From Acidiferrobacterales bacterium (GTDB lineage: Bacteria; Pseudomonadota; Gammaproteobacteria; Acidiferrobacterales; SPGG2), in assembly GCA_046760105.1 (NCBI GenBank), contig JBHIDJ010000008.1, forward strand, positions 1,712 to 65,711: a stretch of DNA of 64,000 bases. The letters run 5' to 3'. Positions 19,389 to 63,100 of the stretch are shown here, piece after piece. A model generated the notes under the pieces. That model saw nothing but the letters and a program-made list of their open reading frames with translations, searched no databases and was not told where the DNA came from. Each line of letters starts with the position of its first letter. Position 1 is the stretch's first letter. Both the position numbers and the translations under genes were made by a program.

Positions 19389-20312
19389 TCAGGTGGTGAT
19401 TGGCTTGGTGGAAGGCTTCCGTCTGGCCCGCGGGTGTGCCTGGTCGTATACGCGCGCCAAGTGCTGAAAGTCCAGGTGCGTGTAAATCTGGGTCGTCGAA
19501 ATGTCGGCATGACCCAGGAGTTCCTGCACGGCGCGCAGGTCGCCACTGGACTCGAGCAGATGGCTCGCGAAGGAGTGGCGCAACATGTGAGGGTGTACGG
19601 GGACATACAAGCCCTGCTGCTGCGCCCAGCGTCGCACCCGCAGCTGCACCGCCCGGTGGCTCAGGCGACGCCCTTTGCGCCCAGTGAACAATGCTGGCTC
19701 GTCCTTGGGCGTGAGGCGCCGTCGCGCCACCAGCCATTGGCTGAGGGCATCACATGCAAAGCGGCCAATGGGCAGTACGCGGGTCTTCGCGCCCTTTCCA
19801 GTTACCCGCACCTGCTCCGCCCGCAGGTCTAGATCTCCCGCATCCAGGCTAACGAGTTCGCCCAAGCGCAATCCCGAGGAGTAGAGTAGCTCCAGGATCG
19901 CGCGATCGCGCACGCTCAACGGATCATCGCCGGCAATCGCGACAAAGCGGCTAGCCTGGTCTACGGTGAGCGCCTTCGGCAGCCTCTTCTTCGCCTTGGG
20001 CGCCGGGATGCCCGCCGCCGGGTTGCGTCTCACCAGGCGTTCCCGCAACAGATAACGGTAAAGCGATCGCGCCGCCGAAAGACAGCGCCGGACAGTCTTG
20101 CCCGAGCGACCCTGGCGATGAACGCTGGCAGCGAAGGCCCGCACATCATGCGGCGCAAGCGCCTGCCAATCGGCGATACCACGTGCGTCACAGAAGGCGA
20201 CTAGTTGCACGAGGTCCCTGGCGTAGGCGCTGATCGTCCTTGGCGACATCCGCCTTTGATCACGCAGGTAGGCCAGGAATTCACTTACCTGGCGTGTTGC
20301 GCGCGGTTGCAT
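19389..20312 (-). CDS. xerC: Tyrosine recombinase XerC
   Basis: 307 aa with catalytic R..HxxR..Y (HMLRHSFASHLL, GHADISTTQIYTH). It sits in dapF-DUF484-xerC synteny. Confidence 0.9.
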   Translation of the reverse strand: MQPRATRQVSEFLAYLRDQRRMSPRTISAYARDLVQLVAFCDARGIADWQALAPHDVRAFAASVHRQGRSGKTVRRCLSAARSLYRYLLRERLVRRNPAAGIPAPKAKKRLPKALTVDQASRFVAIAGDDPLSVRDRAILELLYSSGLRLGELVSLDAGDLDLRAEQVRVTGKGAKTRVLPIGRFACDALSQWLVARRRLTPKDEPALFTGRKGRRLSHRAVQLRVRRWAQQQGLYVPVHPHMLRHSFASHLLESSGDLRAVQELLGHADISTTQIYTHLDFQHLARVYDQAHPRARRKPSTKPITT

Positions 20313-20328
20313 AGTCGCTCTGGGACCG

Positions 20329-21027
20329 TTATCTGAGATAGCGCGCGACGCCGCGCATCAACAGCTCGCCGAGCCTTACCAGATACAGGGTCCCCATCTC
20401 GGGATGAAAACGGTGCGGGTCGCGGCTACCGAGGCACAGCACACCGCGCGGGATCTCGCCCCCGAGAGCGATCATCGCCGTGGATTTGATCTGCTTGGCG
20501 CCGGTGCCGAACAAGTAAGTTAGCATCTTGTCGTCGTACTTGCCGCCACATACGGGTCGGCCACCGACAAACTGCTTTAACAGCGAATTGAGCTGGCGGT
20601 CATCTTGCTTCGTGAACTCCGGCCGCCCCGCGGTGGCTGCCCCCCCGCCCTTGAGGCGGATCACCACCTGATCCAGCTTGAACTCTTGGCGCAGAAGGTC
20701 ATGGGCGGTACTCAACACATCGTCCAGAGAGGCCGCATCGATCATCGCTTGGCTGAAGTGGTGCAGCCGTTCGCCCAGAACCTCGTTTTCACGGGCGATC
20801 GCTACGAGTTCACGTAACTGCTGTTGTAAACGGTGATTCTGTTCGCGCAGCACTTGGACTTGGTGTTCCAGGAGCGAGATGGCGCTACCGCTTTCGGGAT
20901 GAGGTACTTTAAGTGTCGCCAGTACCTCGCCGTGACGCAGGAAGTAATCCGGATTGTCTTCCAGATAGCGAGCTACCGCCTCCTCCCAGGTGAGCTCTTT
21001 TTGTTGTCCTTCGCTTTTGTGAGTCAT
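20329..21027 (-). CDS. DUF484 (YigA) family protein
   Basis: 232 aa with N-terminal ..YLEDNPDYFLRH.. followed by a coiled-coil and a GAF-like region. It occupies the yigA position between dapF and xerC. Confidence 0.85.
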   Translation of the reverse strand: MTHKSEGQQKELTWEEAVARYLEDNPDYFLRHGEVLATLKVPHPESGSAISLLEHQVQVLREQNHRLQQQLRELVAIARENEVLGERLHHFSQAMIDAASLDDVLSTAHDLLRQEFKLDQVVIRLKGGGAATAGRPEFTKQDDRQLNSLLKQFVGGRPVCGGKYDDKMLTYLFGTGAKQIKSTAMIALGGEIPRGVLCLGSRDPHRFHPEMGTLYLVRLGELLMRGVARYLR

Positions 21028-21863
21028 AAACGCTCTACATCAAGGCTGCCTTCATACGTGGTGACGGCCGGGCCCCTCAAAAACGCCGGCTCGCCGTCCC
21101 CAGGCCACGACACGTGCAGCGTGCCCCCGGGTAGTGTCACCTCGACGGCCTCCGCGAGCAAGCCGCGCCGGCAACCCGAGATCACGGCTGCCGTGGCCCC
21201 AGTCCCACACGCCAGCGTCTCACCCACTCCGCGCTCGTGTACGCGCAGACGGATGTGCCGCGGATCCAGCACCTGCATGAATCCCGCATTCACCCGGTTG
21301 GGGAAGCGCGGGTGGTTCTCTACTAGGGGGCCGAGGGTCGCCACTATCCCGTCATCCACGTCCTCGACTATCTGCACTGCATGGGGATTTCCCAGCGAAA
21401 GCACACTGACAGCCACGTGTTTGCCCCCTATATCCAAATCATAGACGACCTCGGGTGTATTTGCCGCAAACGGGATCTTGACGGGATCGAATTCCGGTAC
21501 CCCCATATCGACGGTCACCTGGCCGTCCGTCTCTACACGGAGATGGACCACGCCACCCAGGGTCTGTATCGCCATCTCGCTCTTGTTTGTCAGCCCACAG
21601 TCGCGCACGAACCGAGCCAGGCAGCGCGCCCCGTTGCCGCAATGCTCAACCTCACCGCCGTCGGCGTTAAAGATGCGGAACTTGAAATCGACATCGGGCG
21701 TGTCGGCGCGTTCCAGCAACAGCACCTGGTCACACCCTACCCCGTAACGCCGCTGGGCGATACGGCGGATCTGCTCACGCGTCAGATCGACCCGCCGACG
21801 AATACAATCAAACACCGCGAAGTCATTGCCAAGGCCATGCATTTTGGTGAATGAAACACGCAT
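21024..21863 (-). CDS. dapF: Diaminopimelate epimerase
   Basis: 279 aa with FTKMHGLGNDF, both catalytic Cys contexts (VEHCGNGARC, LACGTGATA), and a 4-nt overlap with the next gene. Confidence 0.95.
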   Translation of the reverse strand: MRVSFTKMHGLGNDFAVFDCIRRRVDLTREQIRRIAQRRYGVGCDQVLLLERADTPDVDFKFRIFNADGGEVEHCGNGARCLARFVRDCGLTNKSEMAIQTLGGVVHLRVETDGQVTVDMGVPEFDPVKIPFAANTPEVVYDLDIGGKHVAVSVLSLGNPHAVQIVEDVDDGIVATLGPLVENHPRFPNRVNAGFMQVLDPRHIRLRVHERGVGETLACGTGATAAVISGCRRGLLAEAVEVTLPGGTLHVSWPGDGEPAFLRGPAVTTYEGSLDVERL

Positions 21864-21928
21864 ACACCAAGATTACCGCCTTGTGCACGGCAAGCAAACT
21901 AGTGTTTGAGCGCCAAGCGGAGTGTGGC

Positions 21929-22597
21929 TCAAGCGAGGTTACCCCAAACGATCAGATGGCGGTCGCTGACCACGTCGATCTGAAGGTAGCCCTCCAGACC
22001 CGCTGTCAGCAGCTGTGCGCGGATCTCGTCCGGGCGATAGCTGGCGAGCAGGGACTTAAAAAAATCGCGTTTCAGGAGCTCGGGTTCATTGCCGCTGTAC
22101 GCGTCGACCAATCGGCGCGCGACGGACCTCGAGTCGGGCCGCAGCAGATCCATCACAAAAATGCTTCTTCTCTGGGGCGGTCCGTTGTCCTTGAGCGTGT
22201 TCCACAGCACGAGCGGATCGGCAAGATGATGCAGCAGACTGTTGCTGATAACCGTATCGAACGTGCTGTGTGCCGGAAGCTCACCCGGCAAACGCACCCT
22301 GACGAGCCTGATCCGATCCTGCATGTCCGCGGCGTCTACAGCCTCTCGGCCTAAGGCCAGCATCGCCTCAGACCCATCAATGCCCGTCAATTCACAATTA
22401 GGATAGGCATGGGCAAAACGAATACTGATGTCGGCCGGCCCGCACCCGAGATCCAGCACACGCAGGGGACTGTGGTCGGGAAAGCGCTCGCGGAAACGCT
22501 CGATGAATGCCTGGTGCGGTTCGGAGAAGTCCGCCATAGCATAGGCGCGTGCCTGCTCGGGATCATCCATCAACTCTGGCTCGGGAATACGTTTCAT
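21929..22597 (-). CDS. Class I SAM-dependent methyltransferase
   Basis: 222 aa with motif I VLDLGCGPADISI. No Shine-Dalgarno is visible; the start lies 13 nt from repeat copy A. Confidence 0.8.
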   Translation of the reverse strand: MKRIPEPELMDDPEQARAYAMADFSEPHQAFIERFRERFPDHSPLRVLDLGCGPADISIRFAHAYPNCELTGIDGSEAMLALGREAVDAADMQDRIRLVRVRLPGELPAHSTFDTVISNSLLHHLADPLVLWNTLKDNGPPQRRSIFVMDLLRPDSRSVARRLVDAYSGNEPELLKRDFFKSLLASYRPDEIRAQLLTAGLEGYLQIDVVSDRHLIVWGNLA

Positions 22598-22610
22598 AAA
22601 ACGACACAGC

Positions 22611-22735
22611 TAGTAGCAAGTTACAAGTAGCAAGTAGCGAGGAGAAAGCAAAAAAGCTTCAGACTCGCCGGAGATTTCCCTTGATCCTTGCTACTTCGCA
22701 CTTACCTACTCGCAGTTAATTACTTGCTACTCGGG
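22611..22735. repeat. Heptad-array palindromic element, copy A
   Basis: Left arm: TAGCAAG TTACAAG TAGCAAG TAGCGAG GAGAAAG (22614-22648). Right arm: CTTGCTA CTTCGCA CTTACCTA CTCGCAG TTAATTA CTTGCTA CTCGGG (22687-22735). The arms are mutually reverse-complementary. Confidence 0.85.
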
Positions 22736-23992
22736 CAATATCGATTCCGTCGCCAGCATCTCATCGATCGTTTCCCGGCGACGGACGATATGGAAGCGAT
22801 CCTTATCAACCATGACCTCTGCCACAAGCGGACGACTGTTGTAACGCGAACTCATAATCGCACTGTAGGCACCAGCACAGCGCACCGCGAGCAGATCACC
22901 GGGGGCGACAGCTAATTCGCGATCGCATCCGAGAAAATCTCCGCTTTCGCAAACCGGACCAACGACATCGTAGACATGCATCTCATGCCCACCGTCCGTG
23001 GCGACCGGCACAATCTCATGCCAGGCATCATAAAGCGCGGGTCGCATGAGGTCATTCATGGCGGCGTCGACCACCGCGAAATTCTTCGCGTTGGTATGCT
23101 TTAGGTACTCCACACGCGTGAGCAGCACCCCGGCTTCACCCACGAGCGCCCGCCCGGGCTCAATCACGACGCGGATGTGCCGGTATCGTGAACCGTGGGC
23201 ATCCAGTCTGTTAATGAGTGCAAGCACGTAGTCACGCGGGCTCGGCGGTTGCTCACTGCGATACGTAATGCCAAGCCCGCCCCCCAGATTGACGTGTTCA
23301 AGTTCGAGTCCTTCCCGACGCAATGCTTCCACCAGCGTCAGCAAACGCTCAAGCGCATCGATAAACGGCGCCGTATCGGTGAGCTGCGAGCCGATATGGC
23401 AAGCCATACCTATGATCTTAATAGTCGGCAGACTGCGGGCATGAGTATAGACATCGCCTGCGCGCTCGATGGGCACACCAAACTTGTTGCGCTTACGGCC
23501 GGTGGCGATATAGGGATGCGTATTCGGATCAACGTCTGGATTCACGCGTAGCGCAACCGGTGCCGGCTTGCCGACCTGACTTGCCAGTTCGCTCAGACGC
23601 GCGAGCTCGCCCTCGGATTCGACGTCAAAACAGTGGATACCTGCTTCCAATGCACGCTGCATTTCGCGCTCAGTCTTGCCGACGCCCGAGAACACCACCC
23701 TCGAGGGGTTACCACCTGCGCGCAGTACGCGCTCGAGCTCCCCTCCGGACACGATGTCGAAGCCCGATCCGAGGCGCGCGAGTAGGTTCAAAATGGCCAG
23801 GTTCGAATTGGCCTTCACCCCGTAACACACCAAATGATCGCGCGAGCCGAAGGCCTCATCAAAGGCATACCATCGGCGCTCGATCATCGCTCGCGAATAC
23901 ACATAACACGGCGTGCCCACTTGCTCGGCAATGGTCGCCAGCGGGATATCTTCGGCAAAAAGTTGCCCGTTACGGTAAGCAAAGAGCGTCAT
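22727..23992 (-). CDS. lysA: Diaminopimelate decarboxylase
   Basis: 421 aa with PLP-site context ..YGVKANSN.., GGGLGI, and CESGD near the C-terminus. Its stop codon lies inside the terminal CTTGCTACTC of repeat A. Confidence 0.95.
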   Translation of the reverse strand: MTLFAYRNGQLFAEDIPLATIAEQVGTPCYVYSRAMIERRWYAFDEAFGSRDHLVCYGVKANSNLAILNLLARLGSGFDIVSGGELERVLRAGGNPSRVVFSGVGKTEREMQRALEAGIHCFDVESEGELARLSELASQVGKPAPVALRVNPDVDPNTHPYIATGRKRNKFGVPIERAGDVYTHARSLPTIKIIGMACHIGSQLTDTAPFIDALERLLTLVEALRREGLELEHVNLGGGLGITYRSEQPPSPRDYVLALINRLDAHGSRYRHIRVVIEPGRALVGEAGVLLTRVEYLKHTNAKNFAVVDAAMNDLMRPALYDAWHEIVPVATDGGHEMHVYDVVGPVCESGDFLGCDRELAVAPGDLLAVRCAGAYSAIMSSRYNSRPLVAEVMVDKDRFHIVRRRETIDEMLATESILPE

Positions 23993-25375: not shown

Positions 25376-25402
25376 GCGGCGCGAATGATATCAAAGAAAA
25401 GA

Positions 25403-25501
25403 CAGATGCAAGATACAAGTAAAAAGATACAGGTTACGCTTTCAATGGTATTCGTCCTATTGAGGTTTTGCTTGTACCTTGGACCTTGAATCTTGTATCT
25501 G
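25403..25501. repeat. Heptad-array palindromic element, copy B (diverged)
   Basis: Left arm: ATGCAAG ATACAAG TAAAAAG ATACAGG (25406-25433). Right arm: CTTGTAC CTTGGAC CTTGAAT CTTGTAT (25471-25498), in perfect 7-nt phase. The right arm lies inside the last 14 codons of lon. Confidence 0.7.
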
Positions 25502-27922
25502 AATTTTCGGATAAACAGTCGTAACAACCTCTTTGTACTGCTTGACGAAATGTACGGTAAGGCCGTTGCGCACATGCTCTGGTAACTCTTCAAAATCGCC
25601 GCGGTTTGCCTCCGGCAGGATAAGCTCCGCGATGCGCACACGCCGTGCGGCGATCACCTTCTCACGAATGCCGCCAACCGGAAGCACCTGACCGGTCAGA
25701 CTCAGTTCGCCGGTCATGCCGATCGGGCGCGCGATCTTCTGCCCACGCGCCAGCGAAAGCAACGCCGTGGCCATGGTGATGCCGGCACTCGGGCCATCTT
25801 TTGGCGTCGCGCCGGCAGGCACATGTAGATGAACAAACGCCTTTTCGAAGTAGTCTGCCGGCGCGCCATAAGGTGCGCTGTGCGATGAGATATAGCTGTA
25901 AGCGATCTCGGCGGATTCCTTCATCACATCACCTAGTTGCCCAGTGAGCTTGAAACCACGTGTGTGCTCGTGCACGCGCGTAGCCTCCACATCGAGCGTC
26001 GCGCCGCCGAGCGGTGTCCACGCAAGACCGGTGGCGATACCCACACCGGTCATGGGCTTCTCCTCCCGAAAAACCGGCTTGCCGAGATAATCCTCGAGAT
26101 TTTTAACACCCACCTTGATCGGCGGTTTCTGTCCTTTGAGAATCTTGACTACCGCTTTGCGCGCAATCGTGCCGATACGCTTTTGCAGATGGCGCACACC
26201 CGCCTCACGCGCATAGCGCTCTATGATCTCGCGGATTGCGTTCTTTTCTATTCTCAGCTCAGTACGCTTAAGGCCCATCTTTCCCAGCTGTCGCGGTATC
26301 AGATGGCTGCGCGCGATCTCCATCTTCTCGAGGGTGATATAACCACCCAGACGTATGACTTCCATACGGTCCAATAACGGTGCTGGAATGGTATCCATTT
26401 GGTTGGCGGTACACATGAACAAGACCTTCGAAAGATCGAAACGTACATCGAGATAGTGATCCAGGAAGTCCTGATTCTGCTCTGGGTCGAGGACCTCGAG
26501 TAACGCTGATGCGGGATCGCCGCGATAGGACGCGCCCACCTTGTCAATCTCATCAAGCATGATTACCGGGTTTGCGGTGCCAACGTCCTTGATCGCTTGG
26601 ATAAACTTCCCCGGCATGGCGCCTATATACGTACGCCGATGCCCCTTTACCTCGGCCTCGTCACGCAAGCCACCCAATGAGAAACGATAAAACCTGCGCC
26701 CGAGCGCGGCCGCCACCGAACGGCCGATCGAAGTCTTGCCCACACCAGGTGGACCAACGAGCAACAGAATCGACCCCGCGACTTCGCCGCGCATAGCGCC
26801 CACGCCGAGAAACTCAATAATGCGTTGCTTTACGTCCTCGAGCCCTTCGTGATCACGGTCCAGTACCTCGCGCGCATGCTCAAGGTCGAGGTTGTCTTCT
26901 GAATACTTGCCCCACGGTAGCAAGGTTAGCCAGTCGAGATAATTGCGCGTTACGGCGTACTCAGGCGACCCCACCTCCAGCACTGACATCTTTTTCATCT
27001 CTTCATCGATACGCTTTCCCGCCTCCTCAGGCAAGTCCGCGTCCTTCAGTCGGGCACGGAATCTATCGAGCTCAGCCGTGCGGTCATCCTTAGCGATGCC
27101 GAGCTCTTTCTGGATCGCCTTGAGCTGTTCCCTAAGGAAATGCTCCCGCTGACGGGTGTGGATGCTTTCTTCCACCTGCTTGTGGATGCGCATCTGCGCC
27201 TTCGCTACCTCGACTTCTTTCTTCAATACCACCAACACCTTCTCTAACCGATCAAGGATGTGCGTGGTTTCTAACACCTCTTGGAGCTCTTCCTTGCTGG
27301 CGGTGGTTAGGCTGGCGGCAAAATCCGCAAGGCGTGACGGCTCTTCCGGGCCAAAGCGATTGAGGAAGAACTTCAGTTCTTCCCCGTAAAGGGGATTCAA
27401 AGGCAGCAGCTCCTTGATGGTATTGACGACGGCTACGGTATAGGCCTTGAGTTCTGTGACGTCCTTGTAGCTCGTCTCTGGAAAGTATTGTGCTCGTACC
27501 GCAAACGGGCGCTCGCTTGACACCCAATCCTCGATGCGGAAACGTTGTAATCCTTCAACGAATATCTGCAGCTTGTCCTCAAGCTTAACAACCTTGTGGA
27601 TCCGGCCAGCCGTCCCCATGGCGTAAAAGTCCGCTGGCTTGGCCTCGAGTGGATCGTCGGTGCGTGTCAAAACCAGGCCCACCACCTTGTGGCCGGCCTC
27701 CATCACTGACTCCACGGTGCGCATCCACGCCTCCTGCTCGAGCACGATCGGAATCATCTGCGCCGGAAAGAATGGCCGGTTAGCTAACGGCAAGACATAC
27801 AAGACGCCGGGTAAGACTTCGGAGGGCCGCGCGAGCGGTGTATGTTCGCGATCCATCAGTTCAGCAGACGGCGATGATTTTTGCTCGTCGTCTTGGTTCT
27901 CGTACGCCTCGATATCTCTCAT
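25457..27922 (-). CDS. lon: ATP-dependent Lon protease (LonA type)
   Basis: 821 aa with a Lon N-domain, Walker A GPPGVGKTS and protease-site PKDGPSAGITMATAL. RBS GGGGAGG. It is not next to clpX, so it is probably a second, AsrA-like Lon. Confidence 0.95.
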   Translation of the reverse strand: MRDIEAYENQDDEQKSSPSAELMDREHTPLARPSEVLPGVLYVLPLANRPFFPAQMIPIVLEQEAWMRTVESVMEAGHKVVGLVLTRTDDPLEAKPADFYAMGTAGRIHKVVKLEDKLQIFVEGLQRFRIEDWVSSERPFAVRAQYFPETSYKDVTELKAYTVAVVNTIKELLPLNPLYGEELKFFLNRFGPEEPSRLADFAASLTTASKEELQEVLETTHILDRLEKVLVVLKKEVEVAKAQMRIHKQVEESIHTRQREHFLREQLKAIQKELGIAKDDRTAELDRFRARLKDADLPEEAGKRIDEEMKKMSVLEVGSPEYAVTRNYLDWLTLLPWGKYSEDNLDLEHAREVLDRDHEGLEDVKQRIIEFLGVGAMRGEVAGSILLLVGPPGVGKTSIGRSVAAALGRRFYRFSLGGLRDEAEVKGHRRTYIGAMPGKFIQAIKDVGTANPVIMLDEIDKVGASYRGDPASALLEVLDPEQNQDFLDHYLDVRFDLSKVLFMCTANQMDTIPAPLLDRMEVIRLGGYITLEKMEIARSHLIPRQLGKMGLKRTELRIEKNAIREIIERYAREAGVRHLQKRIGTIARKAVVKILKGQKPPIKVGVKNLEDYLGKPVFREEKPMTGVGIATGLAWTPLGGATLDVEATRVHEHTRGFKLTGQLGDVMKESAEIAYSYISSHSAPYGAPADYFEKAFVHLHVPAGATPKDGPSAGITMATALLSLARGQKIARPIGMTGELSLTGQVLPVGGIREKVIAARRVRIAELILPEANRGDFEELPEHVRNGLTVHFVKQYKEVVTTVYPKIQIQDSRSKVQAKPQ

Positions 27923-29303: not shown

Positions 29304-29513
29304 CCCGCATCGGCCGACAAGCGGCTGTTATTAAAGCCCGATGCCGCGCCACCCCTGGGTGCACTAGAAAATCCTCCCCAGCCTCTCGCCGCGATCATAC
29401 AAGCCCTTTGCACGTGCACGCATTGCTGGCACGCACACGACCCTGTCAACCGCAGCCCGCGACGGGCGTTAAAGCATATGAAAATAGCGGAAACGATGTC
29501 TGGAGGTACAAGC

Positions 29514-30077
29514 ATGACGACGAAAACATGGTTTGCAGCAGCTTTGTTGGTGTTGGTCACCGCAGCGCCCGTGTTTGCCGATGACGGTGATCGCGGAGAG
29601 TGGATCGAAGACCGCCTGGACCGGCGCGGTGACCGCATCGATCAACGCCTGGACCGCCGTGGCGAGCGGATTGATGAGCGGTTGGATCGGCGTGGTGAGC
29701 GCATCGATGGGCGTCTAAATCACCGCGGCGAACGCGTTGACAAGCGCCTCGACCGACGCGGTGAATCTATCAATGACCGTCTCGACCGCAAGGCCGAGCG
29801 CGCAGAAGAAGCCGGCAAGCAAGGTTTGGCAAAGCGGCTCGACCGCAAGGGCGATCGGATTGAACATCGATATGACCGCAAGGGCGACCGTGTCGAGAAC
29901 CGGCTGGATCGGCGCGGTGATCGGGTGAACGCACGCCTGGACCGGCGTGGTGATCGAATCGAGAATAGGCTCGATCGCCGTGGTGATCACGTTGACCACG
30001 GTTTGGATCGTCGGGGCGAACGTGCTCATCGCCGCGTAGATCGGCATCGTAGGCACGGGGGTGCCCGTCGCCGGTAG
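29514..30077 (+). CDS. Secreted Arg/Asp-rich protein built of 11-residue tandem repeats
   Basis: ATG at 29514 preceded by GGAGG. The signal peptide is MTTKTWFAAALLVLVTAAPVFA. About 12 units of xRLDRRG(D/E)R(I/V)(D/E/N) follow (33-nt period, 29610-30050), with one 19-residue insert. Confidence 0.7.
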   Translation: MTTKTWFAAALLVLVTAAPVFADDGDRGEWIEDRLDRRGDRIDQRLDRRGERIDERLDRRGERIDGRLNHRGERVDKRLDRRGESINDRLDRKAERAEEAGKQGLAKRLDRKGDRIEHRYDRKGDRVENRLDRRGDRVNARLDRRGDRIENRLDRRGDHVDHGLDRRGERAHRRVDRHRRHGGARRR

Positions 30078-45780: not shown

Positions 45781-46644
45781 ATGCGTAGTCGGTGGCTGTT
45801 GAACCTGGGTCTGCTGGCGTTAGTGATGTTGCTCGTCGTTGTCGTCCTCTATGAGGACGGTGCAGACAACGCACAACCGAACGCACCGTTAACAACGCTA
45901 GACACGGAGAAGATCAACAGCATACGCATTCAAAAAGAAAACAACGATCAGCTTCGATTGGAAAGAAACAAAGACGGATGGTTTTTGGTAGCACCTCTGC
46001 GGGCGCGGGCTGATCGTTTGCGCGTACAAAGCTTGCTGCGTCTCGCCATTGCCAGCAGCGAGCTGCGCCGTCCGGCCACCAGCGATAATATCGGTAAGTA
46101 TGGCCTCGACAAGCCAAAGGCGCGTGTGTGGTTTGATAACGAGGAAATCCAACTGGGAACACACCACCCGTTCAAGAAGGCTCGATACGTACTTTACAAC
46201 GGCGAGCTACACTTGGTTCGCGCACTTGATTTCGATCCGGCATCACAGCGGCACACCGATCTTATCAGCCACCGCCTATTTGCAGAGGGCCGGCGACCGG
46301 TGACTTTTGAGTTGCCAGAGCTGACGTTGCGGCGAACGGATGGGAAGTGGCAGATGCGGCCCGCGAATGACGACATCACGCCTGACCGCATCAATCAACT
46401 GGCAGATGAATGGCGCTTTGCGCGCGCACTGGCGGTCGAGCGCTACGGCGGGCAAGACGTACGTGGCTGGATCCGCGTAACACTCAAAGATGTAAGCGGC
46501 GGCGAAAAGAACGACCAACAACTCGTTGAGCTGGGCATCCTGAGCGACGATCCGGGGTTTGTCCTCTACCGCAAAGACGAAGGGCTCACATACCGGTTCA
46601 CCGAGCATACGGGGAAGCGGCTAATGAATATAAAAAGCGAGTAG
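45781..46644 (+). CDS. DUF4340 domain protein
   Basis: 287 aa with an N-terminal TM helix. It sits downstream of gldG-like, the typical DUF4340 context. Its stop codon TAG is the first heptad of repeat C. Confidence 0.65.
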   Translation: MRSRWLLNLGLLALVMLLVVVVLYEDGADNAQPNAPLTTLDTEKINSIRIQKENNDQLRLERNKDGWFLVAPLRARADRLRVQSLLRLAIASSELRRPATSDNIGKYGLDKPKARVWFDNEEIQLGTHHPFKKARYVLYNGELHLVRALDFDPASQRHTDLISHRLFAEGRRPVTFELPELTLRRTDGKWQMRPANDDITPDRINQLADEWRFARALAVERYGGQDVRGWIRVTLKDVSGGEKNDQQLVELGILSDDPGFVLYRKDEGLTYRFTEHTGKRLMNIKSE

Positions 46645-46798
46645 CAAGTAGCAAGAAAAACAACTAAAGGCAAAGTTGATCGATTTGACGTCTTTGCTGG
46701 ACTTTACCGCTGTGACTTAGAACTGCTACCGGACGTACCAGTATTCCTAACTTGTTACTTTCACTTGCTACTTGTCACTTGCTCCTTGCAACTTGTTT
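46639..46798. repeat. Heptad-array palindromic element, copy C (asymmetric)
   Basis: Left arm: GAG TAGCAAG TAGCAAG (46639-46655). Right arm: CTTGTTA CTTTCA CTTGCTA CTTGTCA CTTGCTC CTTGCAA CTTGTTT (46751-46798). The 95-nt spacer has its own hairpin GCAAAG..CTTTGC (46670-46697). Confidence 0.85.
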
Positions 46799-46805
46799 AT
46801 AAGAA

Positions 46806-47621
46806 ATGCCCGAACTACCCGAGATTGAAACCACGCGTCGCGGTATCGCCCCACATGTAATCGGGCAGCCCGTTGATGCGGTCGTGGTAAGGCAGCGGCA
46901 ATTGCGTTGGCCGGTACCCAAGGCACTGATGCGAGAGCTACCTGGCCAGACAATCGAGTCCGTCGATCGTCGCGGCAAATACCTGTTGCTCAACACAGCC
47001 ATCGGTAGCGTCATCTTGCACCTCGGTATGTCCGGCAGTCTGCGCATCGTGCCGCAAGCAAAAACACCGGAGAAATATGATCATGTGGATCTGGTATTCG
47101 CCAACGGTGATTGTCTACGGCTGCGGGACCCACGCCGCTTCGGGGCGGTATTGTGGACCAAGGGCGATGTCACACGACACCGGCTACTCGCGAACATCGG
47201 TCCCGACCCACTCGCACACAGCTTTGGCGGCGACTATCTGTATCGTAAATCGCGCGGGCGCACCCGTGCGATACGGGACTTGTTGATCGACAGTCGCATC
47301 GTGGCGGGCGTTGGAAACATTTACGCGAATGAGGCACTGTACGGCGCCGGCATCCACCCACGGCGTGCCGCCGGGCGTATCAGCCGTCGGCGCTATCAAC
47401 GGCTCACACAAGCGATCCGTACGACCCTGAAACGTGCGATCGCCGCCGGCGGCACCACACTGCGCGACTTTCGTGGCGCCAGCGGCAATCCCGGCTACTT
47501 CCAGCTCACCATGCAGGTCTACGGTCGGGAGGGGGAGCCCTGTCGACGGTGCCGACGCCCGATTCGGGCCGCCCCGTTGGGGGGACGGCGGGTGTTCTAT
47601 TGTTCCCGGTGTCAGTTGTAA
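46806..47621 (+). CDS. mutM: Formamidopyrimidine-DNA glycosylase
   Basis: It starts MPELPEIETTRRG and ends with the zinc finger CRRC..CSRCQ. Confidence 0.95.
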   Translation: MPELPEIETTRRGIAPHVIGQPVDAVVVRQRQLRWPVPKALMRELPGQTIESVDRRGKYLLLNTAIGSVILHLGMSGSLRIVPQAKTPEKYDHVDLVFANGDCLRLRDPRRFGAVLWTKGDVTRHRLLANIGPDPLAHSFGGDYLYRKSRGRTRAIRDLLIDSRIVAGVGNIYANEALYGAGIHPRRAAGRISRRRYQRLTQAIRTTLKRAIAAGGTTLRDFRGASGNPGYFQLTMQVYGREGEPCRRCRRPIRAAPLGGRRVFYCSRCQL

Positions 47622-49849: not shown

Positions 49850-51526
49850 CTATTGCCCGACCCATGCCTCGCCTTCGCCGCGCGGGTCGGCTGCGGCCTC
49901 GAGCCTATTGCTCCGCTTGTACCAGGCGACCACCTGCATATTGCCGTAGGGTCGCGCTCGACGTCGCAGTTCGTGGCCGCGTGCGTGCAGGGCGTCAATC
50001 TCCGCCTGACTAAACGCGCCCGGTTCATACACAACGACGTCGGGCAAATACTGGTGATGAAACCGCGGCAACGCCACCCAATCCGTGGGATCACCACGGC
50101 CGTGGGCAAATTCGAGCGTCGCTAACAACACCATGGAAATAATGCGACTGCCGCCGGGCGTGCCCAGGATGACGACCGCCTTATCGTTTTCTAGAAAAGT
50201 TGGAGTCATGCTGGATAGTGGTCTTTTTCCCGGCGCGATGGCGTTCGCCTCGGTACCCACAAGACCATAGGCATTGGGTACACCCGGTTTTACAACGAAA
50301 TCGTCCATCTCGTTGTTGAGCAACACCCCGGTCCCCGGCGCCATGAAACCAGAGCCGAACGCATAATTGATGGTCAATGTGGCCGCCGCCCGGTTACCGT
50401 CCCGATCGATCACGGAAAAATGGGAGGTCTGACTGCCGTGCTCGCGTGGCGCACCACCGGGCAGCGGTTCACTGGGTGTCGCCCGCTCCGGATCGATGGT
50501 GGCGCGCAGTTGATCAGCGTAGTCGGGCGCGAGCAGCCGTGCGACATCGACCGCCACGAAATCGGGGTCGCCAAGATAGCGGGCGCGATCGCGGTACGCT
50601 CGGCGCATAGCCTCGATGACCACGTGCGCCTGCGCTGCCCCCGATGTTCGCGCAAGAGCCGTGCGCTGTAGGACATTTAGCATCTGCAGCAGGACTATAC
50701 CGCCCGAGGAGGGCAGTGAGGCCGAGGTGATGTGCAGGTCACCGTAGCGCCCGCGTACCGGCGTGCGCTCGGTAACTTGGTAAGCAGCAAGATCATCCAA
50801 AGTCCAAATCCCGCCCGCGTCGCGCACCCCGCTCACCAACTGCTGTGCCACGCTACCGGCATAGAAGCCGCGGCGCCTTTGCTGAGCAATGCGCGCGAGC
50901 ACGGCCGCCAGCGCGGGTTGGCGCACGAGATCGCCCTCCTGCGGCACCTCTCCGTCTTCGAGGAACACCTGTGCCGCCGCCGGCGAGGCCTGCAGCGCCG
51001 ACCGCCGCAAACGTGCCAACCGGCGATAGCGCGGTGTCACCGGAAACCCCATGCGCGCCAAACGGGTGGCGGGCGCGAGACTCTTGGCGAGCGCTAGGCG
51101 TCCGTAGCGCTCGGCGATGTGCGCGAGTGCCGCTGGGGTCCCGGGAATCGCGGCGGCAAGCGGCCCGTCAAGCGAGAGCCGTGGAATTGGTTCGCCGTTA
51201 CGGTTGAGGTACATGTCGCGGCTGGCGCCTAAGGGCGCACGCTCGCGCGCATCGATCATGATCTCAAAGCCGTCATCAGCACGGTGTAGCAACCAAAAGC
51301 CACCACCCCCAAGACCGGAACCGGCCGGCTCCACCACGCCAAGTGCGGCGGCGACCGCCACCGCGGCATCAAAGGCGTTACCTCCCTGACGCAGGACTTC
51401 GCGACCAGCTTGGGTCGCAAGGGGGTGTGCAGTGGCGATCGCGGCTGCACCGGGTTTGAGCTCCGCCCCCAGTCCGACCAACGGCCATAGCACAAACAGT
51501 AGCGCAACATGAAAAAGGCGGGTCAT
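49850..51526 (-). CDS. ggt: Gamma-glutamyltransferase
   Basis: 558 aa with a signal peptide, the autoprocessing-site context ..GSQTSHFSVID.. and the C-terminal GG..DPRGEG motif. Confidence 0.95.
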   Translation of the reverse strand: MTRLFHVALLFVLWPLVGLGAELKPGAAAIATAHPLATQAGREVLRQGGNAFDAAVAVAAALGVVEPAGSGLGGGGFWLLHRADDGFEIMIDARERAPLGASRDMYLNRNGEPIPRLSLDGPLAAAIPGTPAALAHIAERYGRLALAKSLAPATRLARMGFPVTPRYRRLARLRRSALQASPAAAQVFLEDGEVPQEGDLVRQPALAAVLARIAQQRRRGFYAGSVAQQLVSGVRDAGGIWTLDDLAAYQVTERTPVRGRYGDLHITSASLPSSGGIVLLQMLNVLQRTALARTSGAAQAHVVIEAMRRAYRDRARYLGDPDFVAVDVARLLAPDYADQLRATIDPERATPSEPLPGGAPREHGSQTSHFSVIDRDGNRAAATLTINYAFGSGFMAPGTGVLLNNEMDDFVVKPGVPNAYGLVGTEANAIAPGKRPLSSMTPTFLENDKAVVILGTPGGSRIISMVLLATLEFAHGRGDPTDWVALPRFHHQYLPDVVVYEPGAFSQAEIDALHARGHELRRRARPYGNMQVVAWYKRSNRLEAAADPRGEGEAWVGQ

Positions 51527-51536
51527 ATGCGCACAG

Positions 51537-51629
51537 CTTCAAGCTTCAAGTAGCAAGAAAAAACAAGAAAAGAAACTCGAACTCGGTCTCCTTGCTACTC
51601 GGGACTTCGCGCTTGCTACTTGCCACGTG

Positions 51630-51632
<3 letters not shown>
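51537..51632. repeat. Heptad-array palindromic element, copy D
   Basis: Left arm: CTTCAAG CTTCAAG TAGCAAG (51537-51557), followed by an A-rich spacer. Right arm: CTTGCTA CTCGGGA CTTCGCG CTTGCTA CTTGCCA CGTGCTA (51591-51632), six units in phase. Confidence 0.85.
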
Positions 51633-52431
<799 letters not shown>

Positions 52432-55864: not shown

Positions 55865-56815
55865 GTGCCGCTCTTCGGCAAGCCTACAGCTACTGACCAT
55901 ACCGAGCCGCGTGGCCTGCTCGGCCGACTCACTCGGCAACCCCTCGGTGAGCGTCTCACCGACCTATTCTTAGGCAAACGCGTCATCAATGATGACATTC
56001 TCGAAGAACTGGAAACGCTCCTACTCACCGCGGACGTCGGTGTCGAAGCCACCAGGGCCTTGATCGCGGATATCAGCGCGCGGCTTGACCGTAAGGAGCT
56101 GTCCGATGGCCGTGCCGCATACTCTCAGCTAAGACAGAGTATGCTTGAAATCGTTCAGCCCTGCAGCCGGCCGCTGGTCATCCCGGACTCGGTTCGCCCG
56201 TTCGTCATCATGGTGGTCGGGGTGAACGGGGTCGGCAAGACCACGACCATTGGCAAGCTTGCACAGCGGCTGTTGAATGCAGGCTTGCGCGTCATGATCG
56301 CTGCCGCCGATACCTTTCGTGCCGCTGCTATCGAGCAGTTGAAGAGCTGGGGCGAGCGTGCCGGTGTCCCTGTCATTGCCCAACACACCGGCGCCGATGC
56401 CGCTGCCGTGGCGCACGACGCCTTCAACGCCGCGCGTGCCCGTCAGCACGACGTGCTGATCGTGGATACCGCCGGGCGCCAGCACACCAATCTCGGGCTC
56501 ATGGACGAACTCAAAAAGATCAAACGTGTGCTTAACAAAATTGATCCGCATGCGCCACACGAAGTGCTGTTGATCCTGGATGCGGTGACCGGCCAGAACG
56601 CACTCTCACAGTTCGATCATTTTCACAATGCTGTGGGCGTAACCGGCCTATGTACGACGAAGCTTGACGGGACGGCAAAGGGCGGCATCCTGATCGCGCT
56701 GGCAAAGAAGGCGGGTCTTCCTATTCGCTATATCGGCGTCGGCGAAGCTCTGGATGACCTGATCGACTTCAATGCGGAAGAGTTTGTGGATGCGCTAATA
56801 CCTAAAACGGAGTAA
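55865..56815 (+). CDS. ftsY: Signal recognition particle receptor FtsY (short form without acidic A domain)
   Basis: GTG start, 316 aa, with an NG domain carrying GVNGVGKTTTIGK, DTAGR and TKLDGTAKGG. Confidence 0.9.
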   Translation: MPLFGKPTATDHTEPRGLLGRLTRQPLGERLTDLFLGKRVINDDILEELETLLLTADVGVEATRALIADISARLDRKELSDGRAAYSQLRQSMLEIVQPCSRPLVIPDSVRPFVIMVVGVNGVGKTTTIGKLAQRLLNAGLRVMIAAADTFRAAAIEQLKSWGERAGVPVIAQHTGADAAAVAHDAFNAARARQHDVLIVDTAGRQHTNLGLMDELKKIKRVLNKIDPHAPHEVLLILDAVTGQNALSQFDHFHNAVGVTGLCTTKLDGTAKGGILIALAKKAGLPIRYIGVGEALDDLIDFNAEEFVDALIPKTE

Positions 56816-56941
56816 CAAGTAGCAAGCATGATGTAACAAGGAATAGCCAGATGGGGTTCACCAGCTTGTCTTTCGCGTCCCGTTGCTTGCTGCTACTTGC
56901 TACTCACCCCTTGCCACTTGTAACTTGTAACTTGCTACTCG
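56810..56941. repeat. Heptad-array palindromic element, copy E (between ftsY and ftsE)
   Basis: Left arm: GAG TAACAAG TAGCAAG CATGATG TAACAAG. Right arm: eight in-phase heptads GTTGCTT GCTGCTA CTTGCTA CTCACCC CTTGCCA CTTGTAA CTTGTAA CTTGCTA (56882-56937) plus CTC. Confidence 0.9.
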
Positions 56942-56945
56942 AATC

Positions 56946-57620
56946 ATGATTGACTTCAACAATGTCTCGAAGCGCTATCCCGGTGGTCACGATGCCCTCA
57001 AGAATGTCAGTTTCAGTCTCGCGCGAGAAGAGATGGCACTGCTCACCGGCCATTCCGGCGCCGGCAAGAGCACGCTGCTAAAGCTCATTACCTTGATCGA
57101 GCGGCCCACGCGAGGACAGGCCATCGTTAACAATAAGAACCTTACGCGCGTTTCACGCCGACGGGTCCCGAACTTCCGCCGCGACATTGGTATTGTGTTT
57201 CAAGATTACAAGCTCTTGTACGACCGCACTGCTTTCGACAATGTTGCGCTGCCGTTGGTTGTTGCAGGATTGCATCACAAGGAGATCGGCCGGCGCGTGC
57301 GGGCAGCGTTGGACAAAGTCGGTCTTTTGAGAAAGGAGCGTGCCTACCCCATCACGCTGTCCGGCGGCGAGCAACAGCGGATTAGCATTGCCCGCGCGGT
57401 TGTCCATAAACCCGCTTTGCTGCTGGCGGATGAACCGACGGGCAATCTGGACCAGGCATTATCCGATGACATCATGGACCTGTTTCACCAATTCAACCAG
57501 GTAGGTGTCACCGTCCTGATCGCCACCCACGATCAACGCCAGATCCAACGGTTGGGCGGACGCGTACTGGAGCTCCGGCAAGGCGAGATGATCCATGACA
57601 CGGGAGCGGCCACCGTATGA
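56946..57620 (+). CDS. ftsE: Cell division ATP-binding protein FtsE
   Basis: 224 aa with GHSGAGKST, LSGGEQQR and LLLADEPTGNLD. No Shine-Dalgarno; the ATG lies 5 nt after repeat E. Confidence 0.95.
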   Translation: MIDFNNVSKRYPGGHDALKNVSFSLAREEMALLTGHSGAGKSTLLKLITLIERPTRGQAIVNNKNLTRVSRRRVPNFRRDIGIVFQDYKLLYDRTAFDNVALPLVVAGLHHKEIGRRVRAALDKVGLLRKERAYPITLSGGEQQRISIARAVVHKPALLLADEPTGNLDQALSDDIMDLFHQFNQVGVTVLIATHDQRQIQRLGGRVLELRQGEMIHDTGAATV

Positions 57621-62914: not shown

Positions 62915-62929
62915 CCGCCTCCACCCCCA

Positions 62930-63100
62930 CCTCACCCTCCCCAACAAGTGGGGGAACGCCCCTCCCCGGCCCTCCCCGACAAGCGGGGAGGGAGCGAACG
63001 GATAGATTCAGTGCGACATCCGGCTGCTCTAAACGCTCAGTTGTAGCTCAAGAACGCAATTCCCCCTCCCCTTGTGGGAGGGGGCTAGGGGGAGGGGGCT
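62930..63100. repeat. GC-rich REP-like hairpin cluster
   Basis: Three hairpins of the type CCCTCCCC-loop-GGGGAGGG: 62937-62956 (weak), 62970-62992 (8-bp stem) and 63062-63084 (9-bp stem). An extra GGGGGAGGGGG copy follows at 63088-63098. Confidence 0.65.

Follow-up and report, generated by a model that had tools for sequence, protein, structure and literature searches.

Repetitive extragenic palindromic (REP) sequences and the bacterial interspersed mosaic elements (BIMEs) are dispersed, extragenic, multi-copy palindromic DNA located at gene 3' ends and inside operons. A REP is an imperfect palindrome of 20–40 nucleotides (nt) that carries GTAG in its 5' foot; REPs are arranged as inverted pairs and as clusters in which the linkers vary, and an RNA stem-loop was proposed to act on mRNA stability and on translation near stop codons. 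The short tandemly repeated repetitive (STRR) sequences of cyanobacteria are intergenic tandem arrays of 7-nt units, of which CCCCAGT, TTGGTCA and CAACAGT are the classical ones. Likenesses to both are found in the 64,000-nt stretch of an Acidiferrobacterales genome analyzed here (contig JBHIDJ010000008.1), in the following called the window, which contains 65 genes and in whose coordinates positions are given unless another locus is named: five intergenic loci carry a purine-rich array of 7-nt units, an unrelated spacer and a complementary pyrimidine-rich array. These heptad elements are a lineage-specific form of the known, poorly understood class of heptanucleotide repeats, a form not previously described in detail. 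We tentatively read them as a dispersed, REP/BIME-like palindromic family with heptanucleotide arms that is renewed by copying and slippage, is tolerated because stop codons come first, and likely forms an RNA stem-loop.

Heptanucleotide repeats were reported as the most abundant long class among the simple sequence repeats (SSRs) of many prokaryotic genomes and polymerase slippage was proposed as their source, as far as these Mrazek-type surveys are represented in a later paper (PMC4679880). The heptamer TAACTGA, which contains stop codons, occurs in 2–6 repeats in marine Beggiatoaceae, Cyanobacteria and Bacteroidetes, almost wholly in intergenic regions and patchily over distant phyla, and a regulatory RNA role was proposed, not demonstrated (MacGregor, 2015; PMC4679880). 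Its sets, in forward orientation, are placed immediately upstream of start codons, with a single inverted one among 170 (PMC4679880), whereas the arrays of the window start at stop codons and always form inverted pairs. In Geobacter metallireducens, repeat classes 1–3 consist of 3–5 tandem repeats of 7–9 nt, paired on opposite strands at variable distance; there are dozens of copies, some being targets of insertion sequences, and they were interpreted as sites of a global regulator, for which IHF/HU was proposed (Aklujkar, 2009; PMC2700814). This paired-array architecture matches that of the window and, comparing by description only, the class-1 unit GTTGCTYN resembles CTTGCTA; on the other hand, two of the classes have 8–9-nt units, the arrays are known only from supplementary alignments, and neither a relation to stop codons nor a polarity was described (PMC2700814). 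HutP reads three XAG triplets with U4 spacers, with cleavages at U498, U505 and U512 (PMC2425495). The elements of the window resemble HutP/TRAP sites in carrying RAG triplets, spaced by exactly 7 nt, along the 5' side of a stem and in the stretch from one gene's stop codon to the start codon of the following gene. The HutP site belongs to one operon leader and comprises two direct XAG sites, whereas the heptad elements are found genome-wide, have the complement as second array and are accompanied by no HutP-like gene seen in the window. Members of the HutP family are known chiefly from Firmicutes. For heptamers upstream of Nostoc genes, reporter effects were found and no binding partner was identified (bioRxiv 10.1101/2022.06.06.494920). 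In the papers on the TAACTGA, Geobacter and Nostoc repeats (PMC4679880, PMC2700814 and the Nostoc paper), neither this unit nor anchoring on stop codons, a polarity rule or persistence at orthologous junctions is described.

Compared to REPs and BIMEs, a single heptad arm is a direct array and not a palindrome, the arms are richer in A/T than REP stems, the spacers are long and unrelated, and no gene for a RAYT (a Y1 HUH transposase) was found in the sparsely sampled sequence. Tandem extra arms resemble BIME clusters, and the outer end of the elements called type A below reads GAGTAG and contains GTAG; that of type B (lon junction, L229) reads CAGATG/GATACAAG and lacks it. Cyanobacterial STRR arrays are mostly long and one-directional, whereas the window copies are short, stop-codon-anchored inverted pairs, and the change in unit number between close strains that slippage of SSRs and STRRs leads one to expect was not found for this family. 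Absent from the earlier descriptions are the stop-first polarity, the donated stop codon, the persistent 7-nt period, the replacement of sub-types and the near-identical arms at unrelated loci. These regularities offer a handle for distinguishing selfish DNA tolerated by design from RNA structures and protein-binding arrays. Moreover, they bear on annotation: real gene ends are defined by the elements, which also give rise to TAG stops and divide operons that are normally coupled, ftsYEX for example.

Five heptad elements at gene ends

All five copies claimed by the initial annotation are present, with coordinates that were right to 1–5 nt. The motif CTTGNNNCTTGNNNCTTG (at most one mismatch, both strands) has 18 matches in the window, 17 of which lie within the five loci; 100 dinucleotide-preserving shuffles gave 0.27 ± 0.53 matches and none reached 18, so that the signal lies well in excess of chance. 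In a self-match scan over lags 4–12, segments of at least 16/21 were obtained at lag 7 only, and all six fall within four of the elements, the fifth, at mutM, peaking at 15/21 and thereby below the threshold. Tandem Repeats Finder (TRF) independently reported the period-7 arrays AGCAAGT, ACTTGCT and TGCTACT at element loci. Of the intergenic gaps, 38 measure at least 40 nt; among these the five element gaps, and no others, attain a lag-7 score of 14 or more. All five separate co-directional genes, and none of the nine convergent gaps carries an element.

Read on the purine-rich strand, 117 units from the window and related genomes give the consensus T-R-R-C-R-A-G, with C4, A6 and G7 most conserved and positions 2–3 variable; the window units are mostly TAGCAAG. 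Two sub-types are present in the window, TAGCAAG/CTTGCTA (type A) at four loci and ATACAAG/CTTGTAT (type B) at the lon junction. Each copy consists of a purine-rich array of 2–5 units, a locus-specific spacer of ~30–95 nt and one or two complementary arrays, and no sequence apart from an A-run 8-mer is shared among the five spacers. Tandem extra arms are found at the ftsY, ggt and lysA junctions and also in L229, the closest relative examined. The start codon of the next gene follows 5–25 nt past the last unit, and the stop codon of the upstream gene lies within a unit at lysA, DUF4340, ferredoxin and ftsY, the exception being lon. The earlier description of elements in gaps between co-directional genes, touching only the last upstream codons, is supported, save that the open reading frame (ORF) at the lon junction reads through an arm.

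The element between ftsY and ftsE (E5, + strand) has the left arm GAG TAACAAG TAGCAAG CATGATG TAACAAG (56810..56840), and the ftsY (Pfam SRP54) stop codon TAA (56813-56815) is part of its first unit. The spacer of 41 nt is followed by a first right arm of 24 nt (56882..56905; GTTGCTT GCTGCTA CTTGCTA CTC), which closes with CTTGCTACTC at 56905 and pairs over 15 nt with 56810-56824 (93% complementary), and by a second, extra right arm of 31 nt (56910..56940; CTTGCCA CTTGTAA CTTGTAA CTTGCTA CTC), which ends in CTTGCTACTC at 56940. The left arm and the positions of the ftsY stop and ftsE start were described correctly; what had been taken for eight right-arm units in exact 7-nt phase are two tandem right ends split by an ACCC linker, the phase being exact otherwise. 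The ftsE ATG is located at 56946, 5 nt past the element, with no obvious Shine-Dalgarno sequence. In most relatives, CTGAAG or TTGAAG is kept 2–5 nt before the ftsE ATG, and ftsE of the window lacks a recognizable Shine-Dalgarno sequence at this place (56941-56948).

E1 separates lysA from a methyltransferase gene, both on the - strand. Its left arm (22607..22644) reads CAGCTAG TAGCAAG TTACAAG TAGCAAG TAGCGAG GAG, next to the start codon of the downstream gene (22595-22597, - strand), and its right arm (22680..22732) reads CTTGATC CTTGCTA CTTCGCA CTTACCTA CTCGCAG TTAATTA CTTGCTA CTC, with the lysA stop TAG (22727-22729, - strand) within the last unit. The gene order at 19389-23992 is lysA, methyltransferase, dapF, DUF484 and xerC, the class-I methyltransferase lying between lysA and dapF, directly downstream of E1. 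The type-B copy E2 lies between lon and a saccharopine-dehydrogenase-like gene (- strand), with the left arm GAAAAGACAG ATGCAAG ATACAAG TAAAAAG ATACAGG (25396..25433) and the right arm CTTGTAC CTTGGAC CTTGAAT CTTGTAT CTGAATTTTC (25471..25508). Its units are without stop triplets, therefore the lon ORF runs through the right arm and ends in the spacer (25457-25459). The statement that the same architecture recurs at 25403-25501 is accurate for the opposed heptad arrays and overlooked that this copy is a distinct sub-type, ATACAAG/CTTGTAT. E3, between DUF4340 and mutM (+ strand), has the left arm AAGCGAG TAGCAAG TAGCAAG (46635..46655), followed by an A-run; the unit GAGTAGC includes the upstream stop TAG (46642-46644), and the right arm CTTGTTA CTTTCA CTTGCTA CTTGTCA CTTGCTC CTTGCAA CTTGTTT (46751..46798) precedes the mutM ATG at 46806. 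In E4, which separates the gene for a 4Fe-4S ferredoxin from ggt (- strand), the left arm CTTCAAG CTTCAAG TAGCAAG (51537..51557) lies beside the ggt start codon (51524-51526, - strand) and is followed by an A-rich run. Its right arms CTTGCTA CTCGGGA CTTCGCG CTTGCTA CTTGCCA CGTGCTA GCTGCTA TCTTGTT (51591..51646) contain the ferredoxin stop TAG (51630-51632, - strand) inside a unit and extend into the last codons of ferredoxin.

The initial annotation had been unable to match the elements to a named repeat. No Rfam family matches at the gathering threshold, and at E ≤ 5 only a chance mir-354 was returned (E = 3.1); the 12–16-nt strings of the repeat occur in no paper of the open, searchable literature, and blastn of the ftsY element found no match in plasmids or E. 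coli genomes. To this extent the claim holds, although the family is a lineage-specific form of the heptanucleotide-repeat class. A promoter and terminator scan found no site beyond chance at any of the five elements and no G+C-rich stem with U-tract. Integron attC sites (RYYYAAC/GTTRRRY cores, cassettes, integrase) were ruled out by the syntenic housekeeping flanks and the multi-unit arms; the only tyrosine recombinase of the window is a gene of the Phage_integrase family beside DUF484 and dapF, which we read as xerC.

Persistence and replacement at orthologous junctions

By the named sources of its FtsE homologues, the window belongs to the Acidiferrobacterales within the Gammaproteobacteria. 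Syntenic loci were gathered from relatives whose FtsE is 73–90% identical. At four-fold degenerate sites of ftsE these relatives are 31–41% identical to the window and thus saturated, with the exception of L229 (53%). A heptad-periodic element with a purine arm followed by a pyrimidine arm is present between ftsY and ftsE in L124, L125, L127, L129, L150, L151, L152, L153 and L229. The spacer between the two genes measures 70–157 nt and starts at the stop codon in all in-clade genomes examined but one; its first third is purine-rich (0.51–0.75) and its last third pyrimidine-rich. In the window and seven relatives the ftsY stop codon is TAG in six of eight cases and TAA in two. The pooled lag-7 match fraction of the ftsY-ftsE spacers is 0.372, compared to ~0.25 at most lags (0.29–0.30 at lags 3, 4 and 10), and the resulting z = 7.3 holds with the two strongest copies removed. 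In outgroups (FtsE identity ≤71%) the gap is ~0–45 nt and contains no element. The tight junction is the outgroup state, in agreement with the remark that ftsYEX is normally tightly packed, and therefore the spacer is derived. The ftsY-ftsE copy cannot be regarded as a recent insert in this genome, since an element sits at this junction throughout the clade. Since the architecture outlives the sequence at this junction, selection or continual regeneration is required.

Comparison of orthologous junctions in relatives, suggested by the initial annotation, revealed that occupancy differs by junction and lineage: next to the ftsY-ftsE junction, the DUF4340-mutM junction is occupied in most relatives and the ggt-ferredoxin junction is variable, being empty in L125 and L129, which are too diverged to be aligned with the filled site. 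Three metagenome samples contain an identical junction, and the strains L129 and L130 differ by point substitutions only. Unit number is constant between samples and strains and differs between species; the elements are not hypervariable. A reading as contingency loci subject to phase variation was rejected, since the repeats do not change in number from sample to sample or strain to strain and the genes concerned have housekeeping roles.

Instead of the sub-type A of the window, L229 has sub-type B between ftsY and ftsE, with the first unit TAACAAG kept. The right arm of this L229 element, CTTGTACCTTGCACCTTGAATCTTGTATCTG, is identical at 30 of 31 positions to the right arm of E2, the lon-junction copy of the window, and the likeness extends into the GGTTTT flank. 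A specific, non-periodic succession of four different units that loci of two genomes have in common without being orthologous cannot have its source in independent slippage. Multi-unit words recur also elsewhere: the ftsY junction of the window shares CTTGCCACTTGTAAC with L129 and with the element that follows tuf in L088, and CTTGCTACTTGAAACTTG is common to L013 and L114. In L230 and L231 the ftsY-ftsE element is collapsed to one unit pair, GATACAAG and CTTGCAC (L230 6700-6860), and FtsY reads through to a TAA located 1 nt before the ftsE ATG. L230 moreover contains a type-B element upstream of ggt, followed by a canonical GC-rich terminator with T-run (1440-1640).

Polarity and distribution across phyla

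The purine-rich arm places TAG, TAA or TGA in all three frames within three units, while the (CTTGCTA)n arm is open in every frame: as 7 is coprime with 3, three repeats of a TAG-bearing unit close all three frames. Because the arms are inverted symmetrically, the stop-bearing purine arm comes first on either strand. This polarity is strict. CAAG/CTTG pairs are convergent in 12 cases and divergent in none, and a motif-agnostic scan gave 18 purine-first paired arrays compared to 0 pyrimidine-first ones. Across phyla, 37 of 121 arrays (31%) adjoin an open frame of at least 100 codons with its stop in the first units, compared to 6% for random TAG triplets.

The heptad element is not private to this genome. 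Scanning one genome per species for the 17-mer GAGTAGCAAGTAGCAAG returned at least 120 matches, those listed including Cyanobacteria, Bacteroidota, Nitrospirae, Planctomycetota and other phyla. By our own calculation a uniform model predicts ~70 chance matches in the whole collection; the listed matches cluster, however, with eight in one Rivularia genome, seven in Calothrix parasitica and several each in Pleurocapsales, a Ratteibacteria metagenome-assembled genome (MAG) and Omnitrophota, and they are embedded in longer arrays of up to 22 units. Read as GTAGCAA or GAGTAGC, the window unit is repeated up to 22 times in arrays of Rivularia, Calothrix parasitica and Pleurocapsales genomes among the matches listed. 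The contigs that carry the repeat span G+C contents of 0.29–0.68 and therefore belong to different organisms. Carriage by phages was considered and dropped, since three viral contigs contain GAGTAGCAAGTAGCAAG and one and 14 contain two scrambled tandem-heptad controls, i.e., there is no enrichment.

Paired, hairpin-type versions were found in Acidiferrobacterales, Muproteobacteria, Sulfuricaulis, Nitrospirae, Actinomycetota, Thermomicrobiales, Elusimicrobia, Omnitrophota and others, and long one-directional mosaic arrays of many different heptads in Cyanobacteria and Bacteroidota. The conserved core depends on the lineage, being CAAG in Acidiferrobacterales and GTAG in Cyanobacteria, Elusimicrobia and Omnitrophota. 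In L047 an element separates two convergent genes, the stop codons of both being contained in its arms, and in L088, a Muproteobacteria contig, hairpins directly follow the stop codons of tuf (before tRNA-Trp; 149-227) and nusG (before rplK; 1225-1303). E. coli has terminators at the tuf-end and nusG-end positions.

Two observations concern the assignment of contigs. L029, labeled Nitrospirae, carries a type-A and a type-B-like element (GATGCAA GATACAG ... GTATCCT GAATCCT) within 1 kb (790-870 and 1490-1556), so either both sub-types were transferred across phyla or the contig is mis-binned. Furthermore, gut 'cleanbin' MAGs with five taxon labels (Acutalibacteraceae, Segatella copri, Leyella stercorea, Paludibacteraceae and Erysipelotrichaceae; loci L005, L006, L017, L031, L033, L039, L040, L042, L052, L054, L062, L064, L065, L090 and L112) share a nearly identical context of ~30 nt, AGT(C/A)GCAAGAT(G/A)TGAGTAGCAAGTAGCAAG, followed by mosaics of other heptads (AGGAGTT, GTGAAAG, AACATAG, CAATTAT), suggesting one organism spread over several bins, or mis-binning.

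Origin, possible role and other repeats

A REP/BIME-like family tolerated by its stop-first design is the reading that we prefer, and in our judgement it comes close to an even chance without reaching it. We infer that copies would be renewed between loci by transposition or by conversion, in addition to slippage in steps of 7 nt. They would survive at gene 3' ends since the stop-first design ends translation at the edge of the element in either orientation, leaving the neighboring proteins intact. In a polycistronic mRNA, pairing of the arms may give a long, though imperfect, stem-loop and so draw the stop codon near to the start codon of the next gene. Judged from the sequence, the likely role is thus that of a putative intercistronic RNA stem-loop, which, similar to REPs, might act as 3' or intercistronic structure modulating mRNA decay and translational coupling, and not as canonical terminator.

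Several results weigh against this reading. No transposase, RAYT, cold-shock or HutP-like protein and no other enzyme or autonomous partner was found among the 65 genes of the window, all of which are ordinary chromosomal or housekeeping genes, and a RAYT-motif search of the gathered loci, a sparse sampling, gave 0 matches. Inverted ends do exist, as GAGTAGCAAG...CTTGCTACTC is found at three loci in the manner of MITEs (miniature inverted-repeat transposable elements), and to the initial annotation they looked like terminal inverted repeats; a classical MITE fails, as the spacers are unrelated among copies and no direct repeat in the flanks of the five copies points to a target-site duplication. 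The collapse in L230 and L231 implies that the element can be lost and is dispensable there. The evidence for the hairpin is likewise mixed. Folding z-scores are -4.9 for the lon copy, -2.7 to -1.6 for the lysA, mutM and ggt copies, -0.8 for the ftsY copy and -0.4 to -3.9 for the relatives, so that in several copies the stem-loop is weak (z -0.4 to -1.2). The arms pair imperfectly, only with each other, at a distance of 21–122 nt, and never within a single arm, and in the four type-A copies non-cognate arms pair as well as cognate ones. Covariation at the variable unit positions was not detected: 81 of 114 positions pair in register, compared to 79.9 ± 2.1 with permuted unit order (p = 0.38), which argues against selection for a specific helix. 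Pairing reaches ~97% in the CAAG/CTTG core and 71% in the variable triplets. Because non-cognate and permuted arms pair equally well, arm complementarity derives from the shared consensus and not from compensatory evolution. The long stem proposed initially can therefore form, but it is weak in four of the five copies (z -0.8 to -2.7).

The stabler strand, in most copies the G-rich one, follows the GC skew of the chromosome and not the direction of the genes, a further point against this reading: the - strand folds stabler in four of the five window copies, and the GC skew of the + strand is negative throughout the window. We read the stable-strand asymmetry as a compositional bias that gives no evidence for a transcript. 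In four of five copies the left arm is followed by an A-run, and the extra arms lie on the right of the + strand; together with the stable strand, these features may reflect a replication-linked polarity or simply compositional bias. Selection on a sense-strand RNA, deduced from an asymmetry between G-U and A-C, was dropped on the ground that it follows chromosome strand and GC skew, and the impression that arm mismatches are mostly transitions was not used (24 transitions, 22 transversions).

The absence of compensatory covariation, together with the position-specific conservation of C4, A6 and G7 and the higher pairing of the core, would also fit arrays that serve as sites for a protein reading a short core every 7 nt, either an RNA-binding, HutP-like oligomer that controls pairing from the 5' arm or a DNA-binding protein that coats the convergent arrays, such as a ribbon-helix-helix protein like omega repressor or IHF/HU. 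RAG at exact 7-nt spacing is the geometry of HutP (PMC2425495), the periodicity is kept at the orthologous junction despite sequence turnover, and the paired 7/8-nt repeats of G. metallireducens were interpreted as global-regulator sites (PMC2700814). We nevertheless consider this explanation unlikely: no candidate protein was found among the 65 window genes, the core differs by lineage (CAAG, GTAG), the order of variable triplets TAC-SAC-AAT-TAT, which is preserved at 30/31 identity between non-orthologous loci, is left unexplained, and a binder of double-stranded DNA offers no reason for the link to stop codons. A broader version, in which the arrays are cis-sites of a trans-acting system shared across distant phyla, appears more doubtful still, a long shot. 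Its reader could be a ring-shaped, HutP/TRAP-like protein recognizing RAG/UAG in 7-nt steps, which would open and close the stop-to-start stem genome-wide, or else an enzyme mobilizing 7-nt-phased arms; if true, the elements would constitute a global control layer over translation termination and coupling and not passive repeats.

It is also improbable that the arrays are functionless by-products of slippage, i.e., heptanucleotide SSRs in tolerated spacers that are inverted by occasional template switching. Such an origin is in line with the reported abundance of long heptanucleotide SSRs in many prokaryotes (surveys as represented in PMC4679880), the one-directional mosaic arrays of Cyanobacteria and Bacteroidota, arm mismatches and a strand asymmetry compatible with compositional skew, and the loss in the L230/L231 lineage. 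It is at odds with the purine-first polarity (18:0 and 12:0), with a non-periodic 31-nt arm that is 30/31 identical at non-orthologous loci of genomes with 53% four-fold identity, with a spacer and periodicity persisting through saturated synonymous sites, and with a unit number invariant among samples and strains. Moreover, the strongly periodic segments in 266 kb of related sequence are all paired, save one coding false positive, three arms with a sub-threshold partner and one arm at a contig end. Least credible to us are transcription terminators, that is, bidirectional gene-end hairpins without canonical U-tract. Elements do begin at stop codons, those of L088 follow tuf and nusG, positions at which E. 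coli has terminators, that of L047 has the stops of convergent genes inside its arms, and TCTTTTCTTT follows the lon-junction copy on the sense strand. Yet not one of the five elements coincides with a site of the terminator scan, the stems are A/U-rich, interrupted and mostly without U-tract, and all five copies separate co-directional genes at 5–25 nt from the next start, even inside ftsYEX, with 0 of 9 convergent gaps occupied. The separate canonical terminator, GC-rich and with a T-run, that follows the L230 element suggests that the element itself does not terminate.

The window contains two further repeats. A convergent gap (62915-63084) contains three small hairpins, G+C-rich and built on the pattern CCCCTCCCC-(N)-CAAG/CTTG-(N)-GGGGAGGG, which look like a second, unrelated small palindromic repeat; TRF likewise flags 62960-62978. 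Finally, a 33/66-nt tandem repeat (29592-29764) lies within the ORF 29478-30077, whose protein matches an apolipoprotein-like Pfam family weakly, below the cut-off set for that family, and is read as a repetitive helical protein.

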